DNA of 32,000 nucleotides from positions 840,001 to 872,000 of the forward strand of contig NC_000916.1 in NCBI RefSeq assembly GCF_000008645.1, read 5' to 3'. This stretch comes from Methanothermobacter thermautotrophicus str. Delta H. GTDB taxonomy: Archaea; Methanobacteriota; Methanobacteria; Methanobacteriales; Methanothermobacteraceae. The notes beneath the pieces are model-generated. The model did not search any database, was not told the origin of the DNA, and saw nothing but the letters and a program-made list of their open reading frames with translations. Positions 8,363 to 29,590 of the stretch are shown here, piece after piece. The position numbers were made by a program, and so were the translations under genes. Position 1 is the first letter of the stretch, and every line of letters begins with the position of its first letter.

Positions 8363-8380
8363 TTTCACCTCCTTTATAGT

Positions 8381-11602: not shown

Positions 11603-11678
11603 TTTGTCCGGATCACTCCATGGATTGAAGAAAATTCAGGGCACTTTAAATATATTATGAAACATAGGATATACTGTT

Positions 11679-12410: not shown

Positions 12411-12412
12411 AA

Positions 12413-12856
12413 ATGAAGAATAAAGCTCTGGTGGAATTCCTGGGGGATAAGGAATTTAGAAACTCTGAGTTCGTGGCTGGCATTGTAGCCAACCTCGTCC
12501 TCATCTACATCATAAACAGTGTGATGAACTGGGATATCTCCTTCATTGCAGATTCCTTCAGGGACCTTATACCATTATTAAATGCTGTGATAGGAGCCAA
12601 TCTGGCTGCGAATGCCTGTTTCCTCATCTACAGGAGGCAGTGGTTCTGGACGTTCATGCAGATCATCCTGAGTGCACTGGGGTACCTTATGGTCTCATCC
12701 CTTTACAGTGTATTCCCCTTCACCTTCAGGAACCTCTATGTGTTCTACTCTGTCAGGTTCGCCCTCCTTGTTGCAATGGTCGTCCTTGCGGTTGCCGTAT
12801 TCCTTCATGGCCTCAAATTTGTGCTGAAGTTCGTCCTGAAGATTGACCTGGAATAG
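12413..12856 (+). CDS. Hypothetical integral membrane protein (about 4 TM)
   Basis: Hydrophobic segments throughout. The ATG at 12413 is preceded by GGGGAG, 2 nt after the nitroreductase stop. The track start at 12407 is a GTG inside the SD. Confidence 0.65.
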   Translation: MKNKALVEFLGDKEFRNSEFVAGIVANLVLIYIINSVMNWDISFIADSFRDLIPLLNAVIGANLAANACFLIYRRQWFWTFMQIILSALGYLMVSSLYSVFPFTFRNLYVFYSVRFALLVAMVVLAVAVFLHGLKFVLKFVLKIDLE

Positions 12857-14870: not shown

Positions 14871-17800
14871 TCACTGATACCTCTCAAATATTTTCATAAG
14901 ATCTTCCTGTGCTTCATCGGCGATCTGCCTTCTTTTGGGCGCATCCTTCGGGAGGTTCCTCAGGAGGAAAACCCTTATGATTCTCATAACATTCCTCTTA
15001 ACGCTCTCCTGGGACGTCCATCCAGGGAATATGTTCCCATCAACCTCCTCTGTAAGGGCAACAGCATATTCCTTCAGTTTATCCTCTGGTATACCTCTAC
15101 CCCTGAGGGTCATCAGGACCGCGAACTCCTTCTCGTCAAGACCGAGCTCCTTCATTCTGCGCTCCTCCTTCCAGATCTCTCTTATGATGGCAGCGCCCTC
15201 CCTGTAGAGTTCCTCGTAGTCCATGGTTTTCTCCCTCCACTGTTCCAGGAGGCGTTCAACCTTTTCAGCCACCGATTCATAGATGGGGTTCCTTGTGCCA
15301 TTCCTGAGGACATATGAGTTGAGTGTGTAGACTGTTAAGGCAGCCTTATCCCTTATATCCCTGACCTTCCTGAGGTTTTCAAAGTAATCGGAGTCAAATT
15401 CTATTACCGGGAGTTTACTTTCTATTTCCCTGAACTCTGTGGTCCTGTGGATGTATTTGAGGGTTTTCTGGTAATACCTTTCAGTTTCGGCTTCAACTGA
15501 TGGTTTCCTTGATACGACTCTCTGATAGTATGTGTAGATGACCGTGAGCCACCTGTAATCCTTGAGGCCATGCCTTATGAAGGGCTGGTCAGAGAGCAGC
15601 TCGAAGAGCCTTCTGAGTTCACGGTAATTCTCTGTGAATTTCTTTTCGAGTTCTTCATCAGAGGTTATGAGTTCAACCGCGTCGGAGAGGACCTCAATAT
15701 CCATCCCATCCCATTCAAGGTCGCTGAAGATCCTGAGGGTCTCCCTGAGTAGCTCCTCGTATTCCCTCTTCATGGATTCCATATCGTATACTGCGCCCTC
15801 ATACTCCTCCTTACTGTAGAGCTCAAATGCGCGCCTCAGTTCCGCCCCCATGACTCCAATGTAATCTATTATGAGGCCTGCCTCCTTGACGTCCCTGTAG
15901 GGTCTGTTTGTTCTTGCAACTGCCTGCAGCAGTCTGTGTTCCTTCAGTGGCTTGTCGAGGTACATGGTCTGGAGTATGGGTGCGTCGAATCCTGTGAGGA
16001 GCATATCCGTCACTATGAGTATCCGGGGGTTCCTATCAGGGTCCCTGAACCTTTCCAGTACCAGGTTTTTAATCTCATGGTGGTTCCTGCCATGGTATTT
16101 ATCCATGAGTTCCTCATCATAGGCCCTTATTATCTCCTCGTCCCGTGGAGTGTAGGTCATTACGATCTCAGAGTACTCTGGTGGGAGGTGCCTGTCGAGT
16201 TCCCTCTTGTAGAGGACGCATGCCCTTCTGCTTGGAGCCACAACCATGGCCTTGAATCTTCCATCGATGTTCTCTTTGAAGTGTTTCGCGATGTCCTCTG
16301 CTATTAGCTCTATCCTGCGAGGGTTCTCGAGGATGGTTTTTATGGTGTCCAGTTTCCTTTTAACAGATTCCTCAACGTCCTTCCTTATGGATTCTGGCAG
16401 TTCCTCGAATTCCACACCGATGAATGCCTCCAGGTGCTTCCTGTCAAGGTGGACGTCACCTGCGAGTCTCGGCTGATAGGTTATCTTCACGGTGAAGCCG
16501 TCCCTTATGGAGTCTGTTATGAAGTACTGGTGGATGTATTTCTCTTCGGGGGGGTATGCGAACCTATCATAGGTGTCGCGTTCCCTCTTTGATATGGGTG
16601 TTCCTGTGAAGCCGAAGAAGAACGCTGATCTCAGCATGTCCTTCATCTGGGCTGCCAGGAGGCCATACTGACTCCTGTGGGCCTCATCAATGAAGACTAT
16701 GACGTTCTTCCTGTCCATTATGGTTTCTCCTCCATGTTCCCTGAGTTCGGCTGTTATATCATCAAGTTTGTCTGTGAATTTCTGTATGAGTGTTATGAAT
16801 AGGCCCCTCTTTCCCCGGTAGTCATCGCTGGCTATTGTTCTCTTTAATTCTGCTATGGATTCTATTCTTTCAGGCTGGTGGATTTCCAGTGCCGCGAGTT
16901 CTGCGTATAACTGTTCCTCAAGTTCTCTGCGGTCCACTATGAAGAATACTGTTGGGTTCTCCAGTTCCTTCATCCTGTAGAGTTTACTGGCCGCGAATAT
17001 CATTGTCAGGGTTTTGCCTGATCCCTGCCAGTGCCATATGAGGCCCCTGTTCCTTTTATCTTCTCCCCTGATGTTCCTAAGGACCCTTTCAACTATCCTC
17101 TCAGCTGCATGGTACTGCATGTGCCTTGCTATGACCTTGGTTGTTGATCCGAACTCTGTCCTTATGTAGATGTAGTTCCTGATGAAGTCGAGCACCCTTT
17201 CTGGTCTGAGGAGTGGGAGTATATCTGCGGCCGGGAGTCCTGTGTGGTGCTCATGGCCCTGTTTTCTGGATTTTTGAGGGAGTTTACCATCCGTCTCCCT
17301 CCACTCGAAGGTGGGGACCTCATCAAGCCAGGGAACTATCGGGAAGTACCTTGCAAAGTCTTCAGCAGCGACACCCATCTGTACGTACTTGTAGAGTTCC
17401 GGCACTGTCTTCTCATAGTCCTTTATCTGCCGGTAGGCGTCCGCCCATGTCTCTGACATCCCCACGGGGTTTTTGAGTTCTATGTTCACGAGGGGGATGC
17501 CGTTGATGAAGAGCATTATGTCTGTCCTTATGGTCTGGTCACCACGACGGAATACGACCTGCCTTGATGCTGTGAATGAGTTGTGGCTTGGGGTATCGTG
17601 GTCAAGGATTTTGACCTTCCTGGGTTCCCCTGTTGTGGCAGATTTTATGTAAACGCCATTTTTAAGGTATTCAAGTATCGATTTGCATCCCTCAATGCTT
17701 GCTGCTTTACCCCGGAGCTCTTGGATGACCTGCTGTATATCATCATCCTCTATATACTGGTTGATCCTTCTTATGGAGTCTATCAGCTCAGATTCTATGA

Positions 17801-17912
17801 GGGGGTTTTCAGGGTCATCCCTCCCAAGTTCGGCGGCCGGTATATCATTCCAGCCCATTCCCCTCAGTTCCTTCATGAAGTAGTCTTCAAGGGCCTCCTC
17901 ATTTAATTTCAT
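14871..17912 (-). CDS. hsdR: Type I restriction enzyme R subunit
   Basis: 1013 aa. Nuclease D...ELK (DIMLFINGIPLVNIELK). Helicase motifs WQGSGKTLTM, FIDEAHRSQ, FTGTP and QAVARTNR. Confidence 0.95.
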   Translation of the reverse strand: MKLNEEALEDYFMKELRGMGWNDIPAAELGRDDPENPLIESELIDSIRRINQYIEDDDIQQVIQELRGKAASIEGCKSILEYLKNGVYIKSATTGEPRKVKILDHDTPSHNSFTASRQVVFRRGDQTIRTDIMLFINGIPLVNIELKNPVGMSETWADAYRQIKDYEKTVPELYKYVQMGVAAEDFARYFPIVPWLDEVPTFEWRETDGKLPQKSRKQGHEHHTGLPAADILPLLRPERVLDFIRNYIYIRTEFGSTTKVIARHMQYHAAERIVERVLRNIRGEDKRNRGLIWHWQGSGKTLTMIFAASKLYRMKELENPTVFFIVDRRELEEQLYAELAALEIHQPERIESIAELKRTIASDDYRGKRGLFITLIQKFTDKLDDITAELREHGGETIMDRKNVIVFIDEAHRSQYGLLAAQMKDMLRSAFFFGFTGTPISKRERDTYDRFAYPPEEKYIHQYFITDSIRDGFTVKITYQPRLAGDVHLDRKHLEAFIGVEFEELPESIRKDVEESVKRKLDTIKTILENPRRIELIAEDIAKHFKENIDGRFKAMVVAPSRRACVLYKRELDRHLPPEYSEIVMTYTPRDEEIIRAYDEELMDKYHGRNHHEIKNLVLERFRDPDRNPRILIVTDMLLTGFDAPILQTMYLDKPLKEHRLLQAVARTNRPYRDVKEAGLIIDYIGVMGAELRRAFELYSKEEYEGAVYDMESMKREYEELLRETLRIFSDLEWDGMDIEVLSDAVELITSDEELEKKFTENYRELRRLFELLSDQPFIRHGLKDYRWLTVIYTYYQRVVSRKPSVEAETERYYQKTLKYIHRTTEFREIESKLPVIEFDSDYFENLRKVRDIRDKAALTVYTLNSYVLRNGTRNPIYESVAEKVERLLEQWREKTMDYEELYREGAAIIREIWKEERRMKELGLDEKEFAVLMTLRGRGIPEDKLKEYAVALTEEVDGNIFPGWTSQESVKRNVMRIIRVFLLRNLPKDAPKRRQIADEAQEDLMKIFERYQ

Positions 17913-17926
17913 GTTCTATCCCCCCC

Positions 17927-19150
17927 CTATGATGTTATTCTGACCCTCCTTTTACCTGTCAGGAGGTCGTTCATGAGCCCCCTCTTTATGTTTTCAAGTT
18001 TAACCTTCCTCTCCGTGAGGAGCTCGAGCCTTCTGTCCACATCCTGGAGTATCTCTGAAATCCTTTTCTGCTCCTCAAGAGGAGGGAGGGGAATTTTTAT
18101 TTTCCTCATTATTCCCTGGTTTAACTTCTTTCTTGTGGATCCAACGACATAATGAGTTAAATCTAAATAAATAAGAATATGGAGTAAAAATCTATTAGTT
18201 ATCTTAGAAGGTAACGCTTCGATAACATGTGCATGATTATTAACCCAAAACTTACCATTCATTATATATGCAGAGCTCCCAAAGGATGAATAATCACCTC
18301 CATCCTCAGCTAAAAGTACAAATTCCCCATTAAAAATATAATCATTGATATAATCAATTATGCCGTTCGCTCCACAATATGGATAATCACCTTTCATCTT
18401 AATTCTTTCTTTTTCACTAAGAGGTATTCTTTTATTATCATGAATCTCAACAACATCCTCCAAGTTAACAACATCCCAATCCACAGGAATCCTGCCAACA
18501 TGAGAATCCTTGAATTCCGTGTGGTTGATGCCCTCCATCAGAAGCCTCTGCATGAGACCCCTCTTAAGTTTCTCTGTAACCCCTATCTCCTTATTAACCT
18601 TCTCTATCGCACCATCAACATCCTGGAGTATCTCTGAAATCCTTTTCTGCTCCTCAAGAGGGGGTACCGGTAAATAAATTTTTTCCAAAGTTTTTTTATT
18701 GAGTTCTTTGAACGTGCTGCCTCCGCTGAGGTCTTGCAGGCGTTTTTTATTTATTAATAGATAATATGCAAAATATCTCGTGTCAACATGTGATTTAGGG
18801 ACTAGTGCTTTGCATCCTTGATTAAACACACATTCAACCGTATTCAATGCAACGTATCCAACTGGTGCTCTTGTTGAGATGAGAATGGAAAGTTTAGGGA
18901 TAAGATTAAGATTTGTTCTTTTCAGCGCCTTCACAGTAACCTTTCTTTCGCTGTCTGCTATCATAATCCCGTTAAGATTACTCATATCAGCAGGTGTAAC
19001 CCAAACAACATCACCATCATCCCAGAACTCATCTATTTTAGTTGATGGTGTAGTTCCAGTAAAAACATCAAAAACTTCCGAAACTCTGGAAACACCCCAA
19101 TCCACAGGAATCCTGCCAACAGGAGAATCCTTGAATTCCACAGTATTCAC
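17927..19150 (-). CDS. hsdS: Type I restriction-modification specificity subunit
   Basis: 407 aa with two target-recognition halves. Each is preceded by EFKDS.VGRIPVDW and followed by PPLEEQKRISEILQDVD. The GTG start overlaps the hsdM stop (GTGA). Confidence 0.95.
   Translation of the reverse strand: MNTVEFKDSPVGRIPVDWGVSRVSEVFDVFTGTTPSTKIDEFWDDGDVVWVTPADMSNLNGIMIADSERKVTVKALKRTNLNLIPKLSILISTRAPVGYVALNTVECVFNQGCKALVPKSHVDTRYFAYYLLINKKRLQDLSGGSTFKELNKKTLEKIYLPVPPLEEQKRISEILQDVDGAIEKVNKEIGVTEKLKRGLMQRLLMEGINHTEFKDSHVGRIPVDWDVVNLEDVVEIHDNKRIPLSEKERIKMKGDYPYCGANGIIDYINDYIFNGEFVLLAEDGGDYSSFGSSAYIMNGKFWVNNHAHVIEALPSKITNRFLLHILIYLDLTHYVVGSTRKKLNQGIMRKIKIPLPPLEEQKRISEILQDVDRRLELLTERKVKLENIKRGLMNDLLTGKRRVRITS
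18039..18661. repeat. Perfect 44-bp direct repeat inside hsdS (18039-18082 and 18618-18661)
   Basis: ACATCCTGGAGTATCTCTGAAATCCTTTTCTGCTCCTCAAGAGG was read twice. It encodes the conserved EEQKRISEILQDV helices. Confidence 0.95.
18475..19139. repeat. 44-bp direct repeat with one mismatch inside hsdS (18475-18518 and 19096-19139)
   Basis: CCCAATCCACAGGAATCCTGCCAACA(T/G)GAGAATCCTTGAATTCC. It encodes the EFKDS.VGRIPVDW segments. Confidence 0.9.
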
Positions 19151-20919
19151 ATTTTCACCCCCATATACCCAAGTTCATCCAGGTAACCCCTTATCCTCTC
19201 ATCAACTTCGGCGAGTTCCTCCTCGATCTCGGAGAGGCGCATCCACTCACCTGCCACATCAATATCCTCGAGCTCCTCCTCAGGGAATGCGTAGAGCGGC
19301 ACGTTCAGATTATAATCATTCTCACGGATCTCATCAAGGTCGACAACCCTTGAGAATCCATCATCACCCTGGAACTCCCTGTAGGCCTCAAGTATCCTCT
19401 CAATGTTCCCGTCAGATAGGATGTTCAGCTTCCTGACCTCAGGGTGCTTCTCATACTCCTCACCTGCATTGATGAAGAGGACCTTACCCCTCCTTTCCTC
19501 ATCCTTATCCTTGTTGAGGATTATTATTGCCCCCGGGGCACCTGTATTGTAGAATAATTTTTCAGGGAGAAGTATAACCGCCTCTATGAGGTCGTCCTCC
19601 AGTACAGCTGACCTTATACTCTTCTCACGGCCACCCCGGAAGAGGCAACCATTATCTATAACCACACCTATCCTCCCGTCATCCTTGGCAGAGGCTATCA
19701 TGTGCTGTATCCATGCCCAGTCAGCGGACTGCTTGTTCACAAATCCGTACCTGAATCTCTCCCTCCAGTAATCTCCCTTCTTGAGGGTGTCCTCACCGTA
19801 ACCATCCTGGTTCCATGGTGGGTTGGCTATCACTACGTCGAACCTCATGATCCCGTCTGATTCCTTGAATTTGGGGTAGAGGAGTGTGTCACCATGGGCT
19901 ATGTGGTGGTCCTTTATGTCATGTATGTACATGTTCATTGATCCTAAGGCCATTGTCTTCCTGTTGACCTCCTGTCCGTAGAGGAAGAGCCTTTCGGCCT
20001 CACCATAGGTCTCCTTAACGTACTTGTGGGATATTATGAGCATGCCATTGGACGCTGATGCCGGGTCGTAGACGCTTTCGCCGGGTTTTGGGTCGAGTAT
20101 CTCGACCAGTAGCCTTATAACCTCCCTGGGTGTGTAGACCTCGCCCTCCTTGGCCTTGGTTGGGGCGAAGTATCTCAGTATCCATTCATAGGCGTCTCCA
20201 AGGATGTCGGGGTCAACGTTTGTGAGTTTCTTCTCACTGAATAGTTCAACGAGCTGCCTGAGTATCTCCCGGTTCTCCTGGCTCTGTGTGAACTCCACGA
20301 AGTCAAAGGCGTCCACCACGTCCTTGAAGGCGGGGTTGAGTTCTGCGAGGTTCTTGAGGGCCCCTGCAAATTTTATGGGCAGGTTCTCAACGTCCTTCCT
20401 TATGTTGTCCCAGAGGTACTCCTCCTTTATGTCAAGGTCATGGTATGCACTGTTACGTGCCTCAAGCCTCGCCTCCTCCTCACTGAGGCCATACTCCTTT
20501 ATGGCATCCTCATATGCCTTCTGGTATTCCATCATCCACTTGTCACTCATCTGTTTCATGAACAGGAGGACCAGGATGAACTTGTAGTCGACCCTTGTCC
20601 TTATGAGGTCTGCTGCCCCCTTGAGTATCCTCTCTATGTCTGCACGGCCAAGTTTATCGTCCTTGAGGGTGAGGTAATCCTGTATGATCTCTGATTTGGG
20701 TCTGAGCATGTAGATCCTTCTTCTCTCATCATCGGGATCCTTTCTTGTCTCTATCCATCCCTTCTTCCTCATCTCGGATATTGCAGCTGAAAGGGACTTT
20801 TCATCAATTAGATGTTCCTTTCCAAGTATTTCAAGGGCCTCGGTGCTCCTGAATTCCCGGTCCTCAAATTTATCCCAGAGGAGGTCATATTTTTCTTCAA
20901 GCCATTTTGGTAGTTTCAT
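19147..20919 (-). CDS. hsdM: Type I R-M N6-adenine DNA methyltransferase subunit with an N-terminal MarR-like winged-helix extension
   Basis: Motif I VYDPASASNGMLI and motif IV IANPPWNQ. An HsdM_N-like region precedes them. The first ~95 aa contain AISEMRKKGWIETRKDPDDERRRIYMLRP. The ATG at 20919 is preceded by AAGGTGATAAT; the track start at 20997 adds 26 implausible residues. Confidence 0.95.
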   Translation of the reverse strand: MKLPKWLEEKYDLLWDKFEDREFRSTEALEILGKEHLIDEKSLSAAISEMRKKGWIETRKDPDDERRRIYMLRPKSEIIQDYLTLKDDKLGRADIERILKGAADLIRTRVDYKFILVLLFMKQMSDKWMMEYQKAYEDAIKEYGLSEEEARLEARNSAYHDLDIKEEYLWDNIRKDVENLPIKFAGALKNLAELNPAFKDVVDAFDFVEFTQSQENREILRQLVELFSEKKLTNVDPDILGDAYEWILRYFAPTKAKEGEVYTPREVIRLLVEILDPKPGESVYDPASASNGMLIISHKYVKETYGEAERLFLYGQEVNRKTMALGSMNMYIHDIKDHHIAHGDTLLYPKFKESDGIMRFDVVIANPPWNQDGYGEDTLKKGDYWRERFRYGFVNKQSADWAWIQHMIASAKDDGRIGVVIDNGCLFRGGREKSIRSAVLEDDLIEAVILLPEKLFYNTGAPGAIIILNKDKDEERRGKVLFINAGEEYEKHPEVRKLNILSDGNIERILEAYREFQGDDGFSRVVDLDEIRENDYNLNVPLYAFPEEELEDIDVAGEWMRLSEIEEELAEVDERIRGYLDELGYMGVKM

Positions 20920-20971
20920 ATTATCACCTTCAGTTAAGGTGGCAGTCCTGCCTGCAATGATCCCGGTCCAG

Positions 20972-21012
20972 ATTATACAAGCTAATTGACTTACCACTTG
21001 TATAATTTATAC
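20972..21012. promoter_or_regulatory. Inverted-repeat cluster in the hsdM promoter/5' leader
   Basis: ATTATACAAG (20972-20981) and CTTGTATAAT (20997-21006) form a perfect 10-bp inverted repeat with a 15-nt spacer. It overlaps the 13-bp palindrome GTATAATTTATAC (21000-21012). An AT-rich TATA-like tract lies at 21014-21028. Confidence 0.45.
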
Positions 21013-21149
21013 CTTTTAATATAAATATCTTTGTGCGGTATGGCGCTGTAAACCCATTACATAGCATGTCATTTCAAGGTCCAGGTTCATTATCCTCATC
21101 ATCATCCTTATATTCCAGTCCACAGAAATATCACCCCGGAGTGTTAAAC

Positions 21150-22601
21150 ATGAAGGTTCCAAGATGCATGAGTACACAGCATCCAGACAACGTTAACCCG
21201 CCGTTCTTTGCAGAAGAACCTGAACTGGGTGGTGAAGACGAGATAAGGGAGGCATACTACGTCTTCTCACACCTGGGATGTGACGAACAGATGTGGGACT
21301 GCGAGGGCAAGGAAGTGGACAACTACGTTGTAAAGAAACTCCTCACAAAGTACCAGGCCTTCTTCAGGGACCATGTCCTGGGTGAGGATCTGAGGCTCAC
21401 CCTCAGGGTGCCCAACCCCACAGTTGAGAGGGCCGAGGCAAAGATACTCCTTGAGACCCTTGAGAGCATACCCAGATCCTATGACACCGCAAGCCTCTTC
21501 TACGGGATGGACGCAGCCCCGGTCTTCGAGGTCATCCTACCCATGACCTCATCAAGCAGCTGCCTCAACCGGATCCACAGCTACTACCTGGACTTTGTGA
21601 AGGGTAAGGAGAGGCTGCAGCTCGCAGATGGTGTGACCGTCAAGGAGTGGATAGGTGAATTCCGGCCCGACGAGATCAACGTTATCCCCCTCTTCGAGGA
21701 CCATGAGGGGATGCTGAACGCCGCCAAGATCACAGGCGAGTACCTTGATGGTAAGGATATCCAGGAGCAGAGGGTCTTCCTTGCAAGGTCAGACCCCGCC
21801 ATGAACTACGGTATGATATCAGCCACACTCCTCAACAGGATAGCCCTCTCAGACTTCCGGGACCTTGAGGAAGAGTCAGGAGTTAAACTCTACCCCATAA
21901 TAGGTATGGGCTCAGCTCCCTTCAGGGGTAACCTCCGCCCCGATAATGTGGAGGACGTTACCTGGGAGTACCGTGGCGCCTACACCTTCACTGTCCAGTC
22001 ATCCTTCAAGTACGACCATGAACCATCAGATGTCATCAGGGGCATAAAGAAACTCAGGTCTGTTAAACCGGGCAGGGCAGCTGAAATCGAGCGTGAAAGT
22101 GTCCTGGAGATAATTTCAGCCTACTGCAGGGAGTACAGGAGGCAGGTCATGGACCTCGTGGACATCATAAACAGGGTTGCGAGGTACGTGCCCGGCAGGA
22201 GGAAGAGGAAGCTCCACATCGGACTCTTCGGATACTCCAGGAGCATGGGAAACGTTTCACTCCCAAGGGCAATAACCTTCACAGCGGCCCTCTACTCGCT
22301 GGGGGTTCCCCCGGAGCTGCTCGGGTTCAACGCGCTATCATCAGGTGACCTTGAATTCATTGAGGAGGTCTACCCGGGTCTTGGAAGGGACCTCCATGAC
22401 GCTGCAAGGTACGCCAACCCTGAATCACCATTCCTCAGCCCTGAGGTTAAATCATCCTTTGAGGAGTACCTTGAACCTGAGTATGATGAGGGACACATGA
22501 AGACCACAGAGGAGATCATAAGGGCCCTCAGAATCAACAGGACAGCCAACCTCCAGGAGCTCATCCTTGAGGCTGCAAGCCAGAGGAAGTTCCTCGGCTG
22601 A
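21150..22601 (+). CDS. ppcA: Archaeal-type phosphoenolpyruvate carboxylase
   Basis: 483 aa from the ATG at 21150 (MKVPRCMSTQHPDNV...), the characteristic N-terminus and size of archaeal PpcA. The track start at 21033 is a GTG that adds a low-complexity extension. Confidence 0.92.
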   Translation: MKVPRCMSTQHPDNVNPPFFAEEPELGGEDEIREAYYVFSHLGCDEQMWDCEGKEVDNYVVKKLLTKYQAFFRDHVLGEDLRLTLRVPNPTVERAEAKILLETLESIPRSYDTASLFYGMDAAPVFEVILPMTSSSSCLNRIHSYYLDFVKGKERLQLADGVTVKEWIGEFRPDEINVIPLFEDHEGMLNAAKITGEYLDGKDIQEQRVFLARSDPAMNYGMISATLLNRIALSDFRDLEEESGVKLYPIIGMGSAPFRGNLRPDNVEDVTWEYRGAYTFTVQSSFKYDHEPSDVIRGIKKLRSVKPGRAAEIERESVLEIISAYCREYRRQVMDLVDIINRVARYVPGRRKRKLHIGLFGYSRSMGNVSLPRAITFTAALYSLGVPPELLGFNALSSGDLEFIEEVYPGLGRDLHDAARYANPESPFLSPEVKSSFEEYLEPEYDEGHMKTTEEIIRALRINRTANLQELILEAASQRKFLG

Positions 22602-22610
22602 AACCCTCCA

Positions 22611-22660
22611 CCATTTTTTGTGCTGAGCAGAGAGCTGCCCCCCATAAACTATTTTTTCAA
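22611..22660 (+). terminator. Oligo-T terminators after ppcA
   Basis: TTTTTT at 22614-22619 and again at 22652-22657, just after the stop at 22599-22601. Confidence 0.5.
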
Positions 22661-22808
22661 TTCTGAAAGCATCCATACACATCCACTGTAAGACCACCCG
22701 GCCTTCCCACGGGTTCTGGCATCAGTCTACCCACTGTTCCTGACGGACCCGCTGATATAGAATTCTGGCATCACCATCCCCACCCTTCCTTACTGACCTG
22801 TTGATACA

Positions 22809-22817
22809 TTAAAATAG
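22809..22817 (+). promoter_or_regulatory. TATA-like box for the heliorhodopsin gene
   Basis: TTAAAATAG is centred about 26 nt upstream of the SD GGGGGTG (22841-22847) and the ATG at 22852. Confidence 0.4.
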
Positions 22818-22851
22818 CTTCACTGACATAACAATAATGTGGGGGTGTTTT

Positions 22852-23676
22852 ATGGACAACATTGAAAGAATTAAAATGATTGAGAAGTCCCCTATAAGTT
22901 TTGAGGGGCTGAGGAAGCTGAACATAGCGGCCGGGTCCCTGCACCTGATCCAGGGGCTTCTGATGGTTGCGCTGGGTTACCTGCTCACATGGGACAGGGA
23001 CATCTACACGTTCTACCTGAAGTTCAAGATACTCTCACTGAATCCGCCGTCATTCCAGGTCCTTCCCAGCCCTGAGGTGGCATTCACCGTGAGCTACCTC
23101 GGGGTGATCCTTGCATCCTTCCTCCTGATATCTGCGGTGGCCCACTTCACAATAGCCTTCCTCAGGAATGAGAGTTACGTTGAGAACCTGAAGAGGGGTA
23201 TGAACCCCTACCGCTGGTACGAGTATGCTCTCTCAAGTTCAATAATGATAGTGATACTGGCCACCTTCGTGGGGGTCTGGGACCTCTGGTCACTTGTGAT
23301 GATCTTCGTCCTCAACGCATCGATGATAATGTTCGGCTACCTGATGGAGAAGATCAACCAGTACACCGAGAAGATCGACTGGTCACCCTACCTCCTGGGG
23401 TGCATCTCCGGCTTCACCCCATGGGTGGTCATTGCAGCCTACTTCATCGCCGCCCTGGGCTCCGCCGAGACACAGCCACCGGACTTCGTCTACCTCACAC
23501 TGCTCATCTACTTTGTGATGTTCAACACATTCTCCGTCAACATGCTGCTGCAGTACAGGGGTGTCGGTAAATGGAGGGACTACCTCTACGGTGAGAGGGT
23601 CTACATCATACTGAGCCTGGTTGCAAAGACCCTGCTGGCCTGGCTGGTGTTCATAGGGGTGTTCTCACCCTTCTAG
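22852..23676 (+). CDS. Heliorhodopsin-family 7-TM protein
   Basis: NPYRWYEYALSSSIMIVIL, NASMIMFGYLMEK and GERVYIILSLVAKTLLAW closely parallel the remembered heliorhodopsin 48C12 segments FRWVEYSLSSSVMIVLIA, NASMILFGWLQEK and GERAYIVLSLVAKSALAW. His residues are conserved in SLHLIQ and AVAHF. Confidence 0.85.
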   Translation: MDNIERIKMIEKSPISFEGLRKLNIAAGSLHLIQGLLMVALGYLLTWDRDIYTFYLKFKILSLNPPSFQVLPSPEVAFTVSYLGVILASFLLISAVAHFTIAFLRNESYVENLKRGMNPYRWYEYALSSSIMIVILATFVGVWDLWSLVMIFVLNASMIMFGYLMEKINQYTEKIDWSPYLLGCISGFTPWVVIAAYFIAALGSAETQPPDFVYLTLLIYFVMFNTFSVNMLLQYRGVGKWRDYLYGERVYIILSLVAKTLLAWLVFIGVFSPF

Positions 23677-23679
23677 TTC

Positions 23680-23700
23680 TATTTTTTAACCCCTTTTTCT
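23680..23700 (+). terminator. Oligo-T terminator after the heliorhodopsin gene
   Basis: TTTTTT at 23682-23687 and TTTTT at 23694-23698, directly after the stop at 23674-23676. Confidence 0.5.
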
Positions 23701-23799
23701 GGAGGCATCCGGGGGTCAGCCACTCACTTTAAGAACCGCAAAGTATTTATAGGGGTTCCATGTAACCTTATCTTGTCGATATGAGCTCTTTTTAAGCAT

Positions 23800-23871
23800 A
23801 GTCCCGTGGGGTAATGGCAATCCTGATGGACTCTGGATCCATCGATAGCGGTTCGACTCCGCTCGGGACTA
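23800..23871 (+). tRNA. tRNA-Gln (anticodon CUG)
   Basis: Hand-folded cloverleaf. Acceptor AGTCCCG/CGGGACT, T arm AGCGG-TTCGACT-CCGCT, anticodon arm ATGGA-CTCTGGA-TCCAT. No encoded CCA. TATTTATAGG at 23744-23753 is a possible promoter. Confidence 0.9.
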
Positions 23872-23939
23872 TCCCCCCATAACACCCCCCTTTTATCGAA
23901 ACCTATTTATGAAGAACATCACCACCTAATAACTGTCAT

Positions 23940-24012
<73 letters not shown>

Positions 24013-24036
24013 CAAACCACTGATTCTGTGTCCAAA

Positions 24037-25161
24037 ATGGAGGAAATACTTGTAATAGGCGTCAACACCCGACCTGTGGTTGAATCAGCCTTCAGGTTAG
24101 GGTACAGGGTCTACTCTGCAGGTTACTACTGCACAGCAGACTTCAAGCACTACACCGAAAGAAGGTGCATACTGAGGGAGCGTAGCGGTGAAAGCTGCGG
24201 GAGATTCCATGAGAACTTCAGTCAGGAGAAGCTCCTTGAAGCAGCCTCAGATTTCATAGAAAGGGCTGATGGTATAATCCCCCTCACAGGCGCACCCCCT
24301 CTCCCAGGGGAGAAGGTCCTCGGTAACTCCAGGGTTGATCACGTGGAGGACAAGTACCGCCTCTACAGGAGGATCAGGAACTCATACCCCACACCCGAGA
24401 CACACCTCATCAGTGACCCTGCCGAGGCGATGGAGATTGTAGCTGCAGGGGAGAAGAAATACATCGCAAAGCCGGTTTCCGGCGCTGGAGGCTTTGGTGT
24501 CACCGAGTTCCGCGAAGGTGATGGGGAGTTCCTCCTCCAGGAGTACATCGAGGGCGTCCCTGTGAGTGCCTCTGTTCTTTCAACCGGAGAGGATGCCATC
24601 ACGGTTCTGACGAGCAGGCAGATCATCGACAGGGGCGTACCTGGATTTGAGGGGCAGTTCGTCTACGCCGGTAACATGACACCAGGGCCCTCAGGGGAGA
24701 TTGAGGATCTTGCCAGTGACCTCATACTTGACCTCTCCCTGCGCGGATCCAACGGCGTCGACCTCATAATGAGGGACTCCGAGCTGTATGTCATAGAGGT
24801 CAATCCCAGGATACAGGGGACCTTTGAGTGTGCTGAAGCCTCCCTGGGAATAAACATGGTGGATGCCCATATCAGGGCATGCATGGGCGAGCTTATAGAA
24901 AAACCGGACCCGGTCAGTTATGCTGTTAAGAGGATACTCTATGCCCCGGCAAGGTGCCGGGTGGGTGAGATAAAAACCATGGGGGTCCATGACCTTCCTG
25001 TCCCGGGAACCATAATTGAGGAGGGTGAACCCCTGCTGACCGTCCTGGCCTCCCATAACTCCATGGAGGCCGCTGAGAACCTTGCATCAAACATCTGCTC
25101 CAGGGTCAAGAAAGAACTCCATTACCTCCGATGCCCCCCACCTCGACCACAGGGAGTATGA
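24037..25161 (+). CDS. ATP-grasp superfamily ligase (carboligase-like, substrate unknown)
   Basis: KPVSGAGGFGV glycine-rich loop, LLQEYIEG hinge and VIEVNPRIQG Mg-ATP motif. The ATG at 24037 is preferred over the GTG at 24028. Confidence 0.85.
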   Translation: MEEILVIGVNTRPVVESAFRLGYRVYSAGYYCTADFKHYTERRCILRERSGESCGRFHENFSQEKLLEAASDFIERADGIIPLTGAPPLPGEKVLGNSRVDHVEDKYRLYRRIRNSYPTPETHLISDPAEAMEIVAAGEKKYIAKPVSGAGGFGVTEFREGDGEFLLQEYIEGVPVSASVLSTGEDAITVLTSRQIIDRGVPGFEGQFVYAGNMTPGPSGEIEDLASDLILDLSLRGSNGVDLIMRDSELYVIEVNPRIQGTFECAEASLGINMVDAHIRACMGELIEKPDPVSYAVKRILYAPARCRVGEIKTMGVHDLPVPGTIIEEGEPLLTVLASHNSMEAAENLASNICSRVKKELHYLRCPPPRPQGV

Positions 25162-25200
25162 GAATATATTGTCAAGAAAGAACTCCATTACCTCCGATGC
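25105..25200. repeat. Perfect 30-bp direct repeat (25105-25134 and 25171-25200, period 66 bp) at the 3' end of the ATP-grasp gene
   Basis: GTCAAGAAAGAACTCCATTACCTCCGATGC was read twice. The second copy lies just past the stop codon. Confidence 0.95.
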
Positions 25201-25418
25201 TGAGAACCTTCTGCTCCATTAAAGAACCCTACTTTAAGGGGACAAACTGCATATCCTAGGGTTAAGAAGAAGGTGGATTTAAGATACCTCTGGAGCAGAT
25301 CCTTAAGGTATCTGCCATGAAATTTGCAGCTGCTTATCCGGCTCTTGCAGTACCCATACTCTTCAATGTCTCTTATATCCTGTCTTTTTGCAGTGTCCAT
25401 GTACTCTCCAGTGCCCAT
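25188..25418 (-). CDS. Questionable 76-aa ORF
   Basis: ORF track only. It has a weak AGGGGAAA upstream and no recognisable motif. Its 3' end runs into the duplicated ATP-grasp fragment. Confidence 0.2.
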   Translation of the reverse strand: MGTGEYMDTAKRQDIRDIEEYGYCKSRISSCKFHGRYLKDLLQRYLKSTFFLTLGYAVCPLKVGFFNGAEGSQHRR

Positions 25419-25521
25419 TTTCCCCTGATATGATCATCTCAGGTGACTGGATCTGGTGTCCTGCACTCAGAACCCTGTGCATGGGTATCCTCCGATAACA
25501 TCAATCACCGCGGGACAGGCA

Positions 25522-25671
25522 TCAGATTATGCCAAGCAGTAGGAGTATCAGTATTATGGTACCTATCGTTATGAGCACCGTGCTCAGAATCATGCCACCT
25601 GTCATTAAAAGGAAAAGTTTGGCCCTCCTATCAGGGTCCTTAAGGTACTCCTTAAGCGGATCCCTGCTCAT
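25522..25671 (-). CDS. Small single-pass membrane protein (49 aa), below the ORF-track length cutoff
   Basis: Hand translation: MSRDPLKEYLKDPDRRAKLFLLMTGGMILSTVLITIGTIILILLLLGII. GGAGG lies 8 nt upstream of the ATG, and the SD overlaps the stop of the upstream UPF0216-like gene (TAAGGAGG). Confidence 0.5.
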   Translation of the reverse strand: MSRDPLKEYLKDPDRRAKLFLLMTGGMILSTVLITIGTIILILLLLGII

Positions 25672-25684
25672 TCCATCAACCTCC

Positions 25685-26092
25685 TTAGAGCTCCCTCACA
25701 AGGAACATGTACTGTGTAACCGTTGGAAACCTCGCCCTCAGCACCCTCATCTCAGGTCTGTAGATGTAGATCTCATCCCCCTCATCATCCCTCTCAAGGA
25801 CCTCCGAGACAACCTTCACCTCAATATCACCGGCGATCCTTGCACCCGAGGTCTCAGATTCTATCTCAATGTATATCGGGAGCCTCAGCCTCCTTGCCTC
25901 ATCCTCAGTCAGCATCCCCCTGAGGTCTTCAAGTTCAGCCCATTTGAACCTGTGCCTGGTGCCATCAGCCCCTGTAACATGGGGCCTGTCCTCCCTGAGG
26001 AGCTCCTCCAGGGTCTTCCTCCTTGAGGGGAGATGACGGTTGAGGTTGAAGATCTCCTTCTTCATCAGCCTGTCTGATCTGTCACCTCTCAT
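25685..26092 (-). CDS. UPF0216/DUF61-like archaeal protein
   Basis: N-terminal pattern NLNRHLPSRRKTLEELLREDRPHVTGADGTRHRFKWAELEDL...LRLPIYIEI is recalled as typical of the archaea-specific UPF0216 family. The ATG at 26092 lies about 26 nt from a TATA element, so the mRNA may be leaderless. Confidence 0.7.
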   Translation of the reverse strand: MRGDRSDRLMKKEIFNLNRHLPSRRKTLEELLREDRPHVTGADGTRHRFKWAELEDLRGMLTEDEARRLRLPIYIEIESETSGARIAGDIEVKVVSEVLERDDEGDEIYIYRPEMRVLRARFPTVTQYMFLVREL

Positions 26093-26103
26093 CCTATTAG
26101 GCT

Positions 26104-26126
26104 ATGTTTTATATTCTATAAAACAT
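26104..26126. promoter_or_regulatory. Symmetric bidirectional promoter element ATGTTTTATA-TTC-TATAAAACAT
   Basis: A perfect 10-bp inverted repeat with a 3-nt spacer presents TTTTATA on both strands. It lies between divergent genes starting at 26092 (minus) and 26151 (plus). Confidence 0.5.
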
Positions 26127-26150
26127 TAATATCTTAGTGGAGGGTGTACC

Positions 26151-26483
26151 TTGGATATCGATATCGAGCAGTGCCGGGAAAATGATAAGATAAAGGAGAT
26201 AATAAGCGGCAGCGGACTCCCCATAAAGTATATAAAACTTCTTTTAAGGCTCTCGGACGGGATATACATAAACGGCGTCAACTACAATGTGAAGATAGAA
26301 GATAACATCGTCTCAGTCATCCTCATATCCTCCAAGCCCGAGAACAGGACAGGGGTTTTCAGGACAGGGGCCCTCACCAACATATTCTACCGTGTACGTG
26401 AAATTGAAAAGGAGCATGAGGAGATAAAGACCGAGACCCGGGCCAGTGGTAACCTCATAGAGTTAAGGATACATCTCCAGTAG
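26151..26483 (+). CDS. Hypothetical protein (110 aa)
   Basis: TTG start 4 nt after GGAGGGTG (26139-26146). No motif recognised. Confidence 0.55.
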   Translation: MDIDIEQCRENDKIKEIISGSGLPIKYIKLLLRLSDGIYINGVNYNVKIEDNIVSVILISSKPENRTGVFRTGALTNIFYRVREIEKEHEEIKTETRASGNLIELRIHLQ

Positions 26484-26495
26484 GGGTGATGGTTG

Positions 26496-26918
26496 ATGGA
26501 TCCTGAGGACTATCACAGGATTCTCACTGAACTTGCAGACTTCCGGGATCTTGACACGTCCACGATAGCCTCCCTAAGGAGTTCCCTGGTGGAACTGAAG
26601 GATAGAAGGGACCAGCTCCTTGAGATCAGAAAGAACCTGAAGAGGGATATCAGGGGCGTTGAGAGATACTACCTTGAGCGGATGGCCGAGGTAAGGAATG
26701 ATGTTGAGGAGCTGAGGGAGGGCTCATCAAGACTCAGAAGGATCATTTCAGGTAACCCCGCCACTGCCCAGGCCAGGGCCATGAAACAGCTGAAGATGAA
26801 CCGTGAAGCACTGGTGGAAACCTACCGGGACCTCCTGGAGTACACAGAGGAACTCACCGAGCACATTGAGGACCTGATGATTGAACTCTATGAGGAAATG
26901 AAAGGCTTCCTGGGATAA
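26496..26918 (+). CDS. Hypothetical coiled-coil protein (about 140 aa)
   Basis: The ATG at 26496 lies 5 nt after GGGGTGA. The sequence is rich in heptad-like charged helices (LVELKDRRDQLLEIRKNLKRDIRGVERYYLERMAEVRNDVEELRE). Confidence 0.6.
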   Translation: MDPEDYHRILTELADFRDLDTSTIASLRSSLVELKDRRDQLLEIRKNLKRDIRGVERYYLERMAEVRNDVEELREGSSRLRRIISGNPATAQARAMKQLKMNREALVETYRDLLEYTEELTEHIEDLMIELYEEMKGFLG

Positions 26919-27120
26919 ACCATTTCTGGAAGAAAGGCCTCAGGATTCATGGGACTCCATCCAGAGAATGGAATTATCTGCACGGCCCAGTATACGAATG
27001 GTACGTTTAACACGACGAAATCTATTCCCTATGCCGAATCCGGATAAGTGTAGTGAAGTGAAAGAAAAATCAGGGGTCACTCATCACATAAAACATTCCC
27101 TGAGCGTGGGAACTGGAGCA

Positions 27121-27136
27121 ACTTTAAAAATAAATA
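27121..27136 (-). terminator. Possible T-run terminator ending the ATP synthase transcription unit
   Basis: The minus strand reads ATATTTATTTTTAAAG immediately after the stop at 27137-27139. Confidence 0.35.
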
Positions 27137-27520
27137 TTAGTGGGTTAATTCAACCGGTAGAATTATGAGGACACCCAGGAGGTCGTTCCTGCTGATTTTC
27201 CCGTCTGCAGCAGCTACGAAGGTGGCATGGTCTGCCTTACGGTCCATGCTTATGGGTAGGGGTGTCTCCTCCCCTGCAGCTATCGGATGACCCAGGGGGT
27301 TCGTGGCGTAGGCACACATGAAGACTATGTGGTTTGCCGGTATACTGACCTCCTTGATCTTAACCGGCTTTGCCTCGCCGGCCCTGACCTCAACGTCCTC
27401 GTCTGCAATGATGGCCCTGAGGTTCCCGTAGACCTCACCCATCCTGAAGTCCACGAGTTCCCGCCTGTATTTCTCCTCGGCCTCGCGGACCTGGCCGAGC
27501 CTTGTGAGTATCCTAACCAT
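27137..27520 (-). CDS. Hypothetical protein, last gene of the ATP synthase gene string
   Basis: 127 aa. Its ATG shares one base with the atpD stop (TGATG). No motif recognised. Confidence 0.7.
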   Translation of the reverse strand: MVRILTRLGQVREAEEKYRRELVDFRMGEVYGNLRAIIADEDVEVRAGEAKPVKIKEVSIPANHIVFMCAYATNPLGHPIAAGEETPLPISMDRKADHATFVAAADGKISRNDLLGVLIILPVELTH

Positions 27521-28161
27521 CACTCCATCTCCATGGATTTTTTGATCATCTTCAACCTGACGAAGTTCTCCCTCTCCATCTCCTCGAGCCTCATCTCAAT
27601 GTACTTGACGGTGTTCTTGAGCCTCGGGATTATGATGTGTTCGAGGGCGTTAACCCTTCGCTTGGTTGATTCTATCTCACCGGCGAGAAGCCTTATGGTC
27701 TTCTCGATCTCACCGAGTTCTATTATGAGTGCCAGGGACTCCTCGAATTTTCTGGCTGCCTCGTCGAGTTTTACTGATGTGTCCACAAGGCCGTATCCAC
27801 GTTCAACCACGGTCCTCTGGGTTGCCCGGGCATCGACCACCGGTACAACGACACCCATTATACTCCTTGAGTCTATGTCGACCTCCACGGACTCCCTCAC
27901 AGACATTGCAGCCCTCTCAACTGCAGTGTCGCCCATGAGTACCTGGGCCTCTGTGAGGTCAGAGAAGGCCTCCTTGAGGTGCTCCTCCACCTTTTCACGG
28001 GAACCCTTAACCCTCTCAAGGATGTTGAAGAACTCCATGATAAGGGCGTTCCTCTTCTCCTTGAGGAGACTGTAACCCTTGACAGCGAGTTTCTCACGCT
28101 GCTTGAGTTTCAGGAGCTCCATCCTTGTGGGGTTGATCCCCTCAATCATTTCCTGTGCCAT
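27520..28161 (-). CDS. atpD: A-type ATP synthase subunit D
   Basis: 213 aa with N-terminal [32 protein letters not shown], typical of A/V-type subunit D. Confidence 0.95.
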
Positions 28162-28196
28162 TGGCTAACTCTCCTGAAAAAGGATGTTGGGGGTGG

Positions 28197-29588
28197 TTAT
28201 TCGGCACCCGGGAGGTACTTGGGTATGTGCTCCTCGCGGACCCTCTTGAGTTCGGACCTCGGGAGGAGTGATAGCAGTTCCCATCCGAGGTTGAGGGTCT
28301 CCTCTATGGAGCGGTCCTCGTCACGTGCCTGGGTGATGAAGCGTTTCTCAAATTCATCAGCGAATTTTAGGAACTTGCGGTCCCTCTCTGTGAGGGCCTC
28401 CTCACCCACAACCGCCATGAGGTCCCTGAGGTCACGTCCCTCGGCGTAGGCACTGTATAGCTGGTCTGAGACACCGCTGTGGTCCTCACGTGTCCTTCCC
28501 TCACCGATACCACCACTCATGAGCCTGGAGAGTGATGGGAGCACGTCCACCGGTGGGTATATACCCTTACGGTGGAGGTCACGGCTCAGCACTATCTGGC
28601 CCTCGGTGATGTAACCTGTCAGGTCAGGTATGGGGTGTGTGATGTCGTCCTGTGGCATCACCAGTATGGGCATCTGTGTGATTGACCCCTCCTTGCCGAC
28701 TATACGCCCTGCCCTCTCATAGAGGCTTGCAAGGTCAGTGTACATGTACCCCGGGTAACCCCTTCGTCCCGGGACCTCCTCCCTTGCAGCTGAGATCTCC
28801 CTTAGGGCCTCACAGTAGTTTGTGAGGTCTGTGAGTATGACCAGGACGTGCATGTCGTGCTCGAAGGCAAAGTACTCTGCTGTTGTGAGGGCCATCCTCG
28901 GGGTGATGATACGCTCAATGGCAGGGTCGTCTGCCAGGTTCATGAAGACCGTAACACGCTCAAGGGCCCCTGTCCTCTCGAAGTCCCTCATGAAGTAGTT
29001 TGCCTCTTCGTGGGTGATACCCATGGCCGCGAAGATAACCGCGAATTCGCTCTCCTCTGCAAGCACCTTGGCCTGCCTTGCGATCTGGGCTGCCAGTTCG
29101 TTGTGTGGAAGCCCTGAACCTGAGAATATAGGCAGCTTCTGACCCCTCACCAGGGTGTTCATCCCGTCAATGGTTGATATACCGGTCTGTATGAACTCGG
29201 CAGGGAACTCCCTTGCAGCGGGGTTCATGGGGCTACCGTTGATGTCGAGCTCCTTCTCGGGTATGATCTCAGGGCCACCGTCTATGGGTTTACCTGTACC
29301 GTCGAATATTCGGCCCATCATGTCCAGGGATACGCCGATCTTCGCTGTTTCACCTGTGAACCTTATCTTTGTTGTCTCTGTGTTGAGGTCACTGGTACCC
29401 TCAAAGACCTGTACGACTGCAAGGTCCTCCCTGACTTCCAGTACCTGTCCCCTTCTCTTCTCACCTGTGGGTGTTTCAATCTCCACTATCTCACTGTAGG
29501 CAACCCCTTCAACACCCTCAACGATCATTAGAGGACCTGAGACCTCTGTGACGGTGGTGTATTCACGGGTTTTGATGTTAACGTTCAT
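28197..29588 (-). CDS. atpB: A-type ATP synthase subunit B
   Basis: Strong A/V-type B signature throughout ([40 protein letters not shown]). The ATG at 29588 is preceded by GAGGTG; the track start at 29594 is GTG. Confidence 0.97.
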
Positions 29589-29590
29589 CT

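Follow-up and report, generated by a model that had tools for sequence, protein, structure and literature searches.

A conserved heliorhodopsin in the methanogen Methanothermobacter thermautotrophicus Delta H and the question of its retinal supply

The function of heliorhodopsins has been debated since 2018 and few of their partners are known. Characterised members act on partners that they bind: TfHeR from Trichococcus flocculiformis activates a class II CPD photolyase, and other heliorhodopsins are reported to regulate glutamine synthetase and an ABC transporter. Among the described proteins, TaHeR comes from the Thermoplasmatales archaeon SG8-52-1 (PDB 6is6, 7u55 and 7clj) and HeR-48C12 from a freshwater actinobacterium (PDB 6su3, 6uh3 and 9ljj). 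Chazan et al. place 48C12 in group A (subfamily 1) and TaHeR in group B. The heliorhodopsins of Thermococcus sp. 2319x1, Mesotoga infera and Dehalogenimonas, whose hosts are anaerobic and partly thermophilic, have been purified as retinal pigments at 530-539 nm (Kim et al. 2021). Finally, cluster C10 of Bulzu et al. 2021 comprises the heliorhodopsins of "Bathyarchaeia and class Methanobacteria".

We analysed a 32-kb stretch of the genome of M. thermautotrophicus Delta H (hereafter the window, to which all coordinates refer). It carries a heliorhodopsin ORF of 274 codons at 22852-23676 on the + strand, running from an ATG at 22852 to a TAG stop at 23674-23676. The product matches the Pfam profile PF18761 over 241 of its 242 positions (E=1.9e-95, 319 bits compared to a threshold of 26.7) and scores 349 bits against the NCBIfam equivalog NF038020 "HeR", for which the cut-off is 100. 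The 274-aa form is an exact match to the RefSeq record "MULTISPECIES: heliorhodopsin HeR [Methanothermobacter]", which is also encoded by M. marburgensis, by strain EMTCatA1 and by many metagenome contigs. The gene corresponds to MTH944 (AAB85442.1, UniProt O27027), which was labelled "unknown" in 1997 and given a length of 279 aa with a start 15 nt upstream.

Judged by its sequence, MTH944 encodes a true heliorhodopsin, and the gene is undamaged and strongly conserved. A first-pass annotation made from the DNA letters had named the ORF as such and had proposed a profile search and an alignment with 48C12 and TaHeR as checks. The name is borne out by both profiles, by matches to PDB entries and by the fold of the AlphaFold model, with a Pfam match that is full-length and with the Lys and Glu in register. 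The methanogen background that it had supposed is also correct, the proteins on either side being exact matches to AAB85441.1 (the archaeal PEP carboxylase MTH943) and AAB85443.1 of M. thermautotrophicus Delta H. This family assignment is already public: both RefSeq and UniProt name the protein "heliorhodopsin HeR". In our literature search, no paper paired heliorhodopsin with Methanothermobacter and none named MTH944 or O27027.

Compared to the described systems, MTH944 is closer to TaHeR (46% identity over 251 aligned residues, E=1e-57) than to 48C12 (41% identity, E=4e-48). The Lys, the Glu, both His and the Schiff-base serines are identical in TaHeR, and so is the Met at position 231 of MTH944, which corresponds to TaHeR Met210 and to the Gln213 position of 48C12. 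MTH944 differs from TaHeR by a longer AB beta-hairpin (around 32 residues), a longer N-terminus and a Phe (Phe221) at the lateral fenestration where TaHeR has Ala200; its host also differs in being a thermophilic methanogen. 48C12 is from another phylogenetic group than MTH944; relative to it, Gln213 is replaced by Met, Ser201 by Ile and Gln247 by Leu. The heliorhodopsins described by Kim et al. 2021 belong to other clades than MTH944 and none is from a methanogen.

The HMMER alignments establish the correspondence of the two hallmark residues with those of TaHeR and 48C12. The Schiff-base lysine of TM7, Lys259 (codon AAG, 23626-23628, + strand), is equivalent to 48C12 Lys241 and TaHeR Lys238 and sits in the motif SLVAKTLLAW (residues 255-264). 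The counterion Glu124 (codon GAG, 23221-23223, +) is equivalent to 48C12 Glu107 and TaHeR Glu108 and sits in RWYEY (residues 121-125); helix C reads RWYEYALSSS, with the Glu as its sole carboxylate. Two histidines belong to the Schiff-base cavity: His31 (22942-22944, +; 48C12 His23) in SLHLIQ (residues 29-34), and His98 (23143-23145, +; 48C12 His80, TaHeR His82) in AVAHF (residues 95-99). A further motif, NASMIMFGYLMEK, spans residues 155-167. The Glu, the Lys and both His thus fall in register with TaHeR and 48C12, just as the first reading had placed them. Neither Lys259 nor Glu124 varies among the 120 closest homologues (the best 120 listed).

We also compared MTH944 with 48C12 at the 44 structurally key residues listed by Kovalev et al. 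(PMC7049168) and found 36 of them to be identical. The Schiff-base group is shared in full: Lys259, Glu124, Ser255, Ser94 and Ser128, the three serines being equivalent to Ser237, Ser76 and Ser111 of 48C12, with Ser replacing the Asp212 of type-1 rhodopsins. All residues of the cavity group are likewise identical (His31, His98, Asn118, Tyr125, Asn24, Glu248, Arg121 and Tyr109), as are Trp122, Met158, Ile159, Trp191 and Phe224 of the retinal pocket. From this conserved pocket and from the relatives that have been measured, we infer that MTH944 binds all-trans retinal, absorbs in the green-yellow and has a slow photocycle in which no ions are transported. Bulky residues, Phe188 and Phe221, occupy the two positions that Kovalev et al. 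tie to a tighter lateral fenestration, and easy uptake of retinal is therefore not guaranteed.

The AlphaFold model of the product, built on 48 homologues with a pLDDT of 88.8, has seven long helices and a long AB beta-hairpin (strands 49-63 and 66-80). When the model is compared with the PDB, the top 10 matches are all heliorhodopsins (best E 1.8e-18; TM-score 0.81/0.90 for TaHeR). The positive-inside count gives 14 Lys and Arg on the N-terminal side compared to 3 on the opposite side; by this count alone, the protein fits the inverted topology with a cytoplasmic N-terminus. An identity as a type-1 proton-pumping rhodopsin or a schizorhodopsin was considered and rejected: there is no Asp counterion/donor motif, and type-1 structures match the model weakly (E of at least 4e-3, 8-17% identity). 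Other rhodopsins are known in methanogens, the schizorhodopsins of Methanoculleus forming a separate family.

A scan of a genome collection for heliorhodopsin relatives gave no cultured Methanothermobacter genome, and we read the genus distribution from the members of protein clusters. Among the matches listed, the nearest relatives at 66-82% identity are found in Methanobacteriaceae, Methanosuratincola and Bathyarchaeia, and the cultured carriers include Methanobacterium oryzae, M. ferruginis, M. petrolearium and M. spitsbergense. A 94%-identical copy is found in a MAG with the isolate name Kamch4336, which suggests an origin in Kamchatka (hereafter the Kamchatka MAG). In a neighbour-joining tree, a Bathyarchaeia group stands apart from a Methanobacteria group that includes Methanothermobacter. 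Methanosuratincola and a few Bathyarchaeia are nested in the Methanobacteria group, and transfer has therefore taken place in the clade. By its sequence relationships, MTH944 belongs to cluster C10.

The start codon and the expression signals can be read from what is conserved within the genus. In five Methanothermobacter lineages (Delta H, Marburg, the Kamchatka MAG, M. wolfeii and THM-1), the ATG at 22852, a TATA-like box and a G-run are conserved; the remaining intergenic DNA is not. The candidate archaeal TATA box TTAAAATA lies at 22809-22816 (+), around 36 nt 5′ of the start codon, and an A/T-rich box (TTAAAATA or TTTATATG) is found at the same position in each of the five lineages, which would be consistent with a promoter function. 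The ribosome-binding site GGGGGTG (22841-22847, +) ends 4 nt before the ATG and its GGGG core is invariant in the five lineages.

The 1997 annotation used an in-frame ATG further upstream, at 22837-22839 (+), which is absent from Marburg, the Kamchatka MAG and M. wolfeii. Because this ATG is not conserved among relatives, 22852 is the better start. The upstream ATG also lies just 5′ of the ribosome-binding site, which would then be inside the coding sequence, and the homologues are 274 aa long. We conclude that 22837 is probably not the true start.

Archaea terminate transcription at oligo-T runs. A T6 run (23682-23687) and a T5 run (23694-23698) follow the heliorhodopsin stop and form a candidate terminator of this type (23682-23698, +), and two T6 runs (22614-22619 and 22652-22657, together 22614-22657, +) follow the stop of the upstream gene ppcA. 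These T6 runs and a gap of 250 nt set the heliorhodopsin gene apart from ppcA. A promoter and terminator scan of the bacterial type found no hairpin-type terminator in this archaeal DNA. Its sigma-70 promoter matches were set aside as bacterial signals that are irrelevant in an archaeon, and we relied instead on how well the TATA box and the ribosome-binding site are conserved. In an Rfam scan of 22400-24200 only two tRNAs were found, with no regulatory RNA upstream of the heliorhodopsin gene. Within the genus the genes keep the order ppcA, heliorhodopsin, tRNA-Gln(CTG), tRNA-Gln(TTG), ATP-grasp, and the GC content of the heliorhodopsin gene is like that of its surroundings. The TATA box, the Shine-Dalgarno sequence and the T-runs on both sides, all reported at first pass, were found in place, and a monocistronic MTH944 with its own promoter is a reasonable reading of this layout.

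Next, we estimated selection from pairwise Nei-Gojobori dN/dS. The heliorhodopsin gene has a dN/dS of 0.046 between Delta H and the Kamchatka MAG and of 0.086-0.098 relative to the THM-1 and M. wolfeii-type alleles. For the same genome pair, both flanking genes have higher values (0.196 for ppcA and 0.165 for the ATP-grasp gene). The comparison of Delta H with Marburg was discarded as uninformative, with only 4 synonymous differences in the gene and 98.8-100% identity over the whole 12-kb region. These ratios indicate that the gene is under strong purifying selection. The earlier view of a functional protein, argued from the retained Lys and Glu, gains support from dN/dS values of 0.05-0.10.

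Of the Methanothermobacter lineages sampled, all but M. wolfeii carry an intact ORF. In M. wolfeii, the loss of 1 nt from codon 120, immediately ahead of RWYEY, splits the gene into ORFs of 130 aa and 143 aa. The split is identical in independent ENA, NCBI and JGI assemblies, and the collection searched has 99 blocks that index the 130-aa product. The frameshifted allele differs from the intact metagenomic allele P0002 by two substitutions and the deletion; because this difference is so small, the loss is taken to be very recent, after a long period of purifying selection. The first-pass annotation had named relaxed selection, with pseudogenes in relatives, as evidence that would count against a functional protein. 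A frameshifted copy does exist in M. wolfeii, but the lesion is very recent and gives no sign of selection relaxed over the long term. Such a frameshift is what one would expect if the gene can be spared in dark digesters; it does not point to general decay.

The window offers no visible source of retinal. Among its ORFs of at least 100 aa that were judged to be genes, we found no carotenoid or retinal gene; the genes present encode a CobN-type chelatase, a polyferredoxin, an ExoIII-like nuclease, a MarR protein and a type I R-M system, in addition to ppcA, the heliorhodopsin, the ATP-grasp protein and A-type ATP synthase subunits. The paradox of an opsin without a route to retinal thus holds for the 32-kb window. 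As a special case of this methanogen, it does not hold: the pattern is on record for the whole family. Among 381 genomes with a heliorhodopsin as their sole rhodopsin (heliorhodopsin-only genomes), a complete retinal pathway was found in 1 (Bulzu et al.), blh is rare in heliorhodopsin genomes (Chazan et al.) and the same puzzle is discussed by Pan et al. for sediment Bathyarchaeota. The puzzle is thus real, but it had been described before and extends beyond methanogens. Capture of exogenous retinal has been proposed by Shihoya et al., as cited by Bulzu et al. Scavenging, which had been suggested at first pass, becomes the leading explanation, since heliorhodopsin-only genomes mostly have no pathway of their own.

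The paradox had also been sharpened by the statement that these methanogens come from dark habitats, which is too strong in view of the 94%-identical copy in the MAG whose name suggests Kamchatka. Kiener et al. in 1989 and Yasui et al. in 1994 are reported to have purified a light-dependent class II DNA photolyase from M. thermautotrophicus, and Olson et al. in 1991 reportedly found the organism to be sensitive to blue light. Both points weaken the premise of a dark habitat.

Genes next to heliorhodopsins can point to partners. We found no linked partner in Methanothermobacter, where the neighbours are ppcA, the two tRNA-Gln genes and the ATP-grasp gene. A functional link with ppcA was rejected since the adjacency is confined to the genus and T-runs and a promoter lie between the two genes. 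Across the wider clade, a divergently transcribed gene for a SOUL heme-binding protein adjoins the heliorhodopsin gene in 28 of 79 loci, and within cluster C10 it is present in 20 of the 41 Methanobacteria-type loci, Methanothermobacter being without it. Neither the window nor the Methanothermobacter loci examined gave a top-ranked tblastn match to SOUL. Other recurrent neighbours in the clade are an AhpC/TSA peroxiredoxin, a PNPOx-like protein and a radical-SAM/SPASM protein, and one Bathyarchaeal locus has a class II CPD photolyase around 600 nt downstream of the heliorhodopsin gene. SOUL and other neighbours of heliorhodopsins that are linked to oxidative stress and light have already been reported by Chazan et al., and we therefore do not count the SOUL neighbour as a new observation. 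TfHeR belongs to the same family and is a plausible model for the regulation of a partner through the cytoplasmic loops; no photolyase gene lies beside MTH944.

For a protein whose family is established by profile, alignment and fold, we infer the source of the chromophore, the partner and the physiological purpose as follows. By analogy with its relatives, MTH944 is probably a slow-cycling light sensor that uses scavenged retinal and signals light, and with it oxygen or photodamage, to a cytoplasmic partner. All-trans retinal would be held as a protonated Schiff base on Lys259, stabilised by Glu124, Ser255, Ser94 and Ser128, and next to the Schiff base His31 and His98 would line a cavity filled with water, as the conservation of these residues suggests. 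The host is almost certainly unable to make retinal, so the opsin would depend on scavenging, with neighbouring organisms or detritus as the source of retinal or of a closely similar molecule. Green light would isomerise the retinal and give a long-lived photoproduct with no movement of ions. The photoproduct may then shift the cytoplasmic loops and thereby modulate a partner protein. For a strict anaerobe, light would mean nearby oxygenic phototrophs and photosensitised or UV damage, and a warning signal is the most likely use. Such a sensor would raise repair or antioxidant functions, and the partner with the best precedent is a class II photolyase. The gene would be idle in digesters that are always dark, consistent with the recent frameshift in M. 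wolfeii. Counting against the sensor reading, sewage sludge is the origin of the type strains and their mineral growth medium is free of retinal, yet the gene is intact in many digester-derived genomes.

Several other readings have to be weighed against the light sensor. The first-pass annotation had allowed for a light-independent role (structural, chaperone-like or regulatory) or for another ligand such as a lipophilic aldehyde or a polyene. Such a role would be compatible with the missing retinal route in the window and generally in heliorhodopsin-only genomes, and with an ORF that purifying selection keeps intact in strains whose source assemblies include a biogas-fermenter metagenome. Nevertheless, the Lys, the counterion and the pocket for the polyene and the beta-ionone ring are as in retinal-binding structures, the invariance of Lys and Glu throughout the best 120 homologues would be difficult to account for if the chromophore were not of the retinal type, and the heliorhodopsins of other strict anaerobes do bind retinal. 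The frameshift in M. wolfeii further argues that the gene is dispensable in digester populations. With the whole pocket conserved we disfavour this reading and consider it unlikely. Synthesis of retinal or an analogue by the host itself, through a novel O2-independent pathway from its abundant isoprenoid precursors, would explain the strong conservation in organisms grown without retinal. We regard it as quite improbable, since no candidate gene was found at any of the 79 related loci and the neighbours are not carotenoid enzymes. Every known cleavage of carotenoids to retinal requires O2, and no methanogen is known to make carotenoids. A pathway other than the known ones has been argued for by Chazan et al. 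in some bacteria that carry a heliorhodopsin, for example Aurantimicrobium minutum.

A light-driven or light-gated transporter of protons or other ions would have a precedent in the viral heliorhodopsin V2HeR3, which PMC12873467 reports as a proton transporter. MTH944, however, groups with TaHeR and the 48C12-type prokaryotic heliorhodopsins, in which no ion translocation was seen (PMC7049168). The interior of the extracellular half of 48C12 is completely hydrophobic (PMC7049168) and most of the key residues are kept in MTH944, which makes transport very unlikely. It is harder still to see the gene as a decaying, non-functional relic of horizontal transfer. Transfer does occur in this clade, as the nesting of Methanosuratincola and some Bathyarchaeia in the Methanobacteria group indicates, and M. 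wolfeii does carry a frameshift; but the dN/dS of 0.05-0.10 is below that of the flanking housekeeping genes, the ORF is intact in the other lineages sampled, the promoter and ribosome-binding site are conserved and the GC content is like that of the surroundings. We consider decay extremely unlikely. Taking the more unusual outcomes together, there is a small chance that MTH944 is not an ordinary retinal photoreceptor, either because its chromophore comes by an O2-independent route or its ligand is not retinal, or because it is a "light means oxygen danger" sensor with a methanogen-specific partner.

The slow-cycling light sensor with scavenged retinal is therefore the reading that we retain. 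The gene, the family, the clade (class Methanobacteria together with Bathyarchaeia) and the pattern of the missing pathway were already on record, and MTH944 is an ordinary, already-annotated member of its family: a good lead, not a discovery, with modest value through its host as a cultured test organism. A canonical heliorhodopsin in a well-studied laboratory methanogen that is grown in mineral medium with no possible source of retinal provides a clean experimental handle on a family with few known partners. Should the chromophore source or the ligand prove to be unusual, or the partner to be specific to methanogens, Delta H, which is cultured in defined medium, would offer the cleanest setting for finding it.

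Among the 120 closest homologues listed (P0001-P0120; loci L011, L013, L015, L022, L025-L028, L030, L031, L033-L036, L038, L039, L042, L045 and L047), the two Schiff-base-cavity positions occupied in the Delta H protein by His31 and His98 covary: the pair is His/His in 81 proteins and Leu/Leu in the other 39. Within this set the Leu/Leu heliorhodopsins form a single subclade found in Methanobacterium/Methanobacteriaceae only. Both cavity types can be found in the same metagenome-assembled genome, PtaB.Bin024, which carries a His/His protein at one locus (L017) and a Leu/Leu protein at another (L035). Chazan et al. tied low M-intermediate accumulation in a Chloroflexi heliorhodopsin to missing cavity histidines.

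We also found a broken heliorhodopsin gene in M. wolfeii (L091 6001-6824, also L092 and L093; matching window ~23209). One nucleotide is deleted at codon 120 (AACCCCTAC to AACCCC-AC), which splits the gene into ORFs of 130 and 143 aa, the latter with Met132 as its new start. Index entries for the 130-aa product occur in 99 blocks of the genome collection, and an intact allele only two substitutions away from the frameshifted gene is present on the metagenome contig L095 (protein P0002).

Comparison of Methanothermobacter genomes reveals two variable defence-island sites flanking the heliorhodopsin gene (window 14871-20997, minus strand; L094 3843-6825). Upstream of ppcA, genomes of the Delta H/Marburg type and the M. 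wolfeii-type contig L095 carry a type I R-M system (hsdR/S/M), with an hsdS that varies in length between 384 and 407 aa; M. wolfeii and THM-1 have no such system at this site. Directly 3′ of the Delta H heliorhodopsin gene lie tandem tRNA-Gln(CTG) and tRNA-Gln(TTG) genes (window 23799-23874 and 23939-24013, plus strand) with their own TTTATA box (23746-23751), which are kept in Marburg, M. wolfeii and a Kamchatka MAG. In THM-1, their place is occupied by a BREX island (BrxL, PglZ) starting 18 nt past the heliorhodopsin stop codon.

Window ~19150-29600 and the M. marburgensis locus L083 (CP001710.1) share 98.8-100% nucleotide identity over at least 12 kb, and the ATP-grasp gene is identical at 1125 of 1125 nt. 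Such identity seems higher than two separately named species would be expected to show, and could reflect either a recombination tract or simply a closer relationship between the genomes.

Further away, a 1668-aa CobN/Mg-chelatase-family protein (window 3362-8368, minus strand; PF02514, E=6e-270) is encoded next to genes for a polyferredoxin, a DUF364 "heavy-metal chelation" protein and a solute-binding protein. This neighbourhood is a tetrapyrrole or metal-insertion cluster with no relation to heliorhodopsin.

In 28 of 79 related loci, spanning Methanobacteriaceae and Bathyarchaeia, a SOUL heme-binding gene (PF04832, E=2.6e-38) is divergent from the heliorhodopsin gene; it occupies position -1 in 26 loci, for example L039 9311-9883 and L002 9107-9760 (both minus strand). 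By tblastn, the window and the Methanothermobacter loci gave no SOUL homologue among the top-ranked matches. Heme use is not known from Methanobacteriales. In a single locus of the same heliorhodopsin clade, the Bathyarchaeal L073, the heliorhodopsin gene is followed after ~600 nt by a class II CPD photolyase gene (11401-12750, plus strand; E=5e-114 against M. mazei 2xry). The SOUL association is already known, having been recorded by Chazan et al., and the heliorhodopsin/photolyase adjacency resembles the published TfHeR-photolyase partnership.
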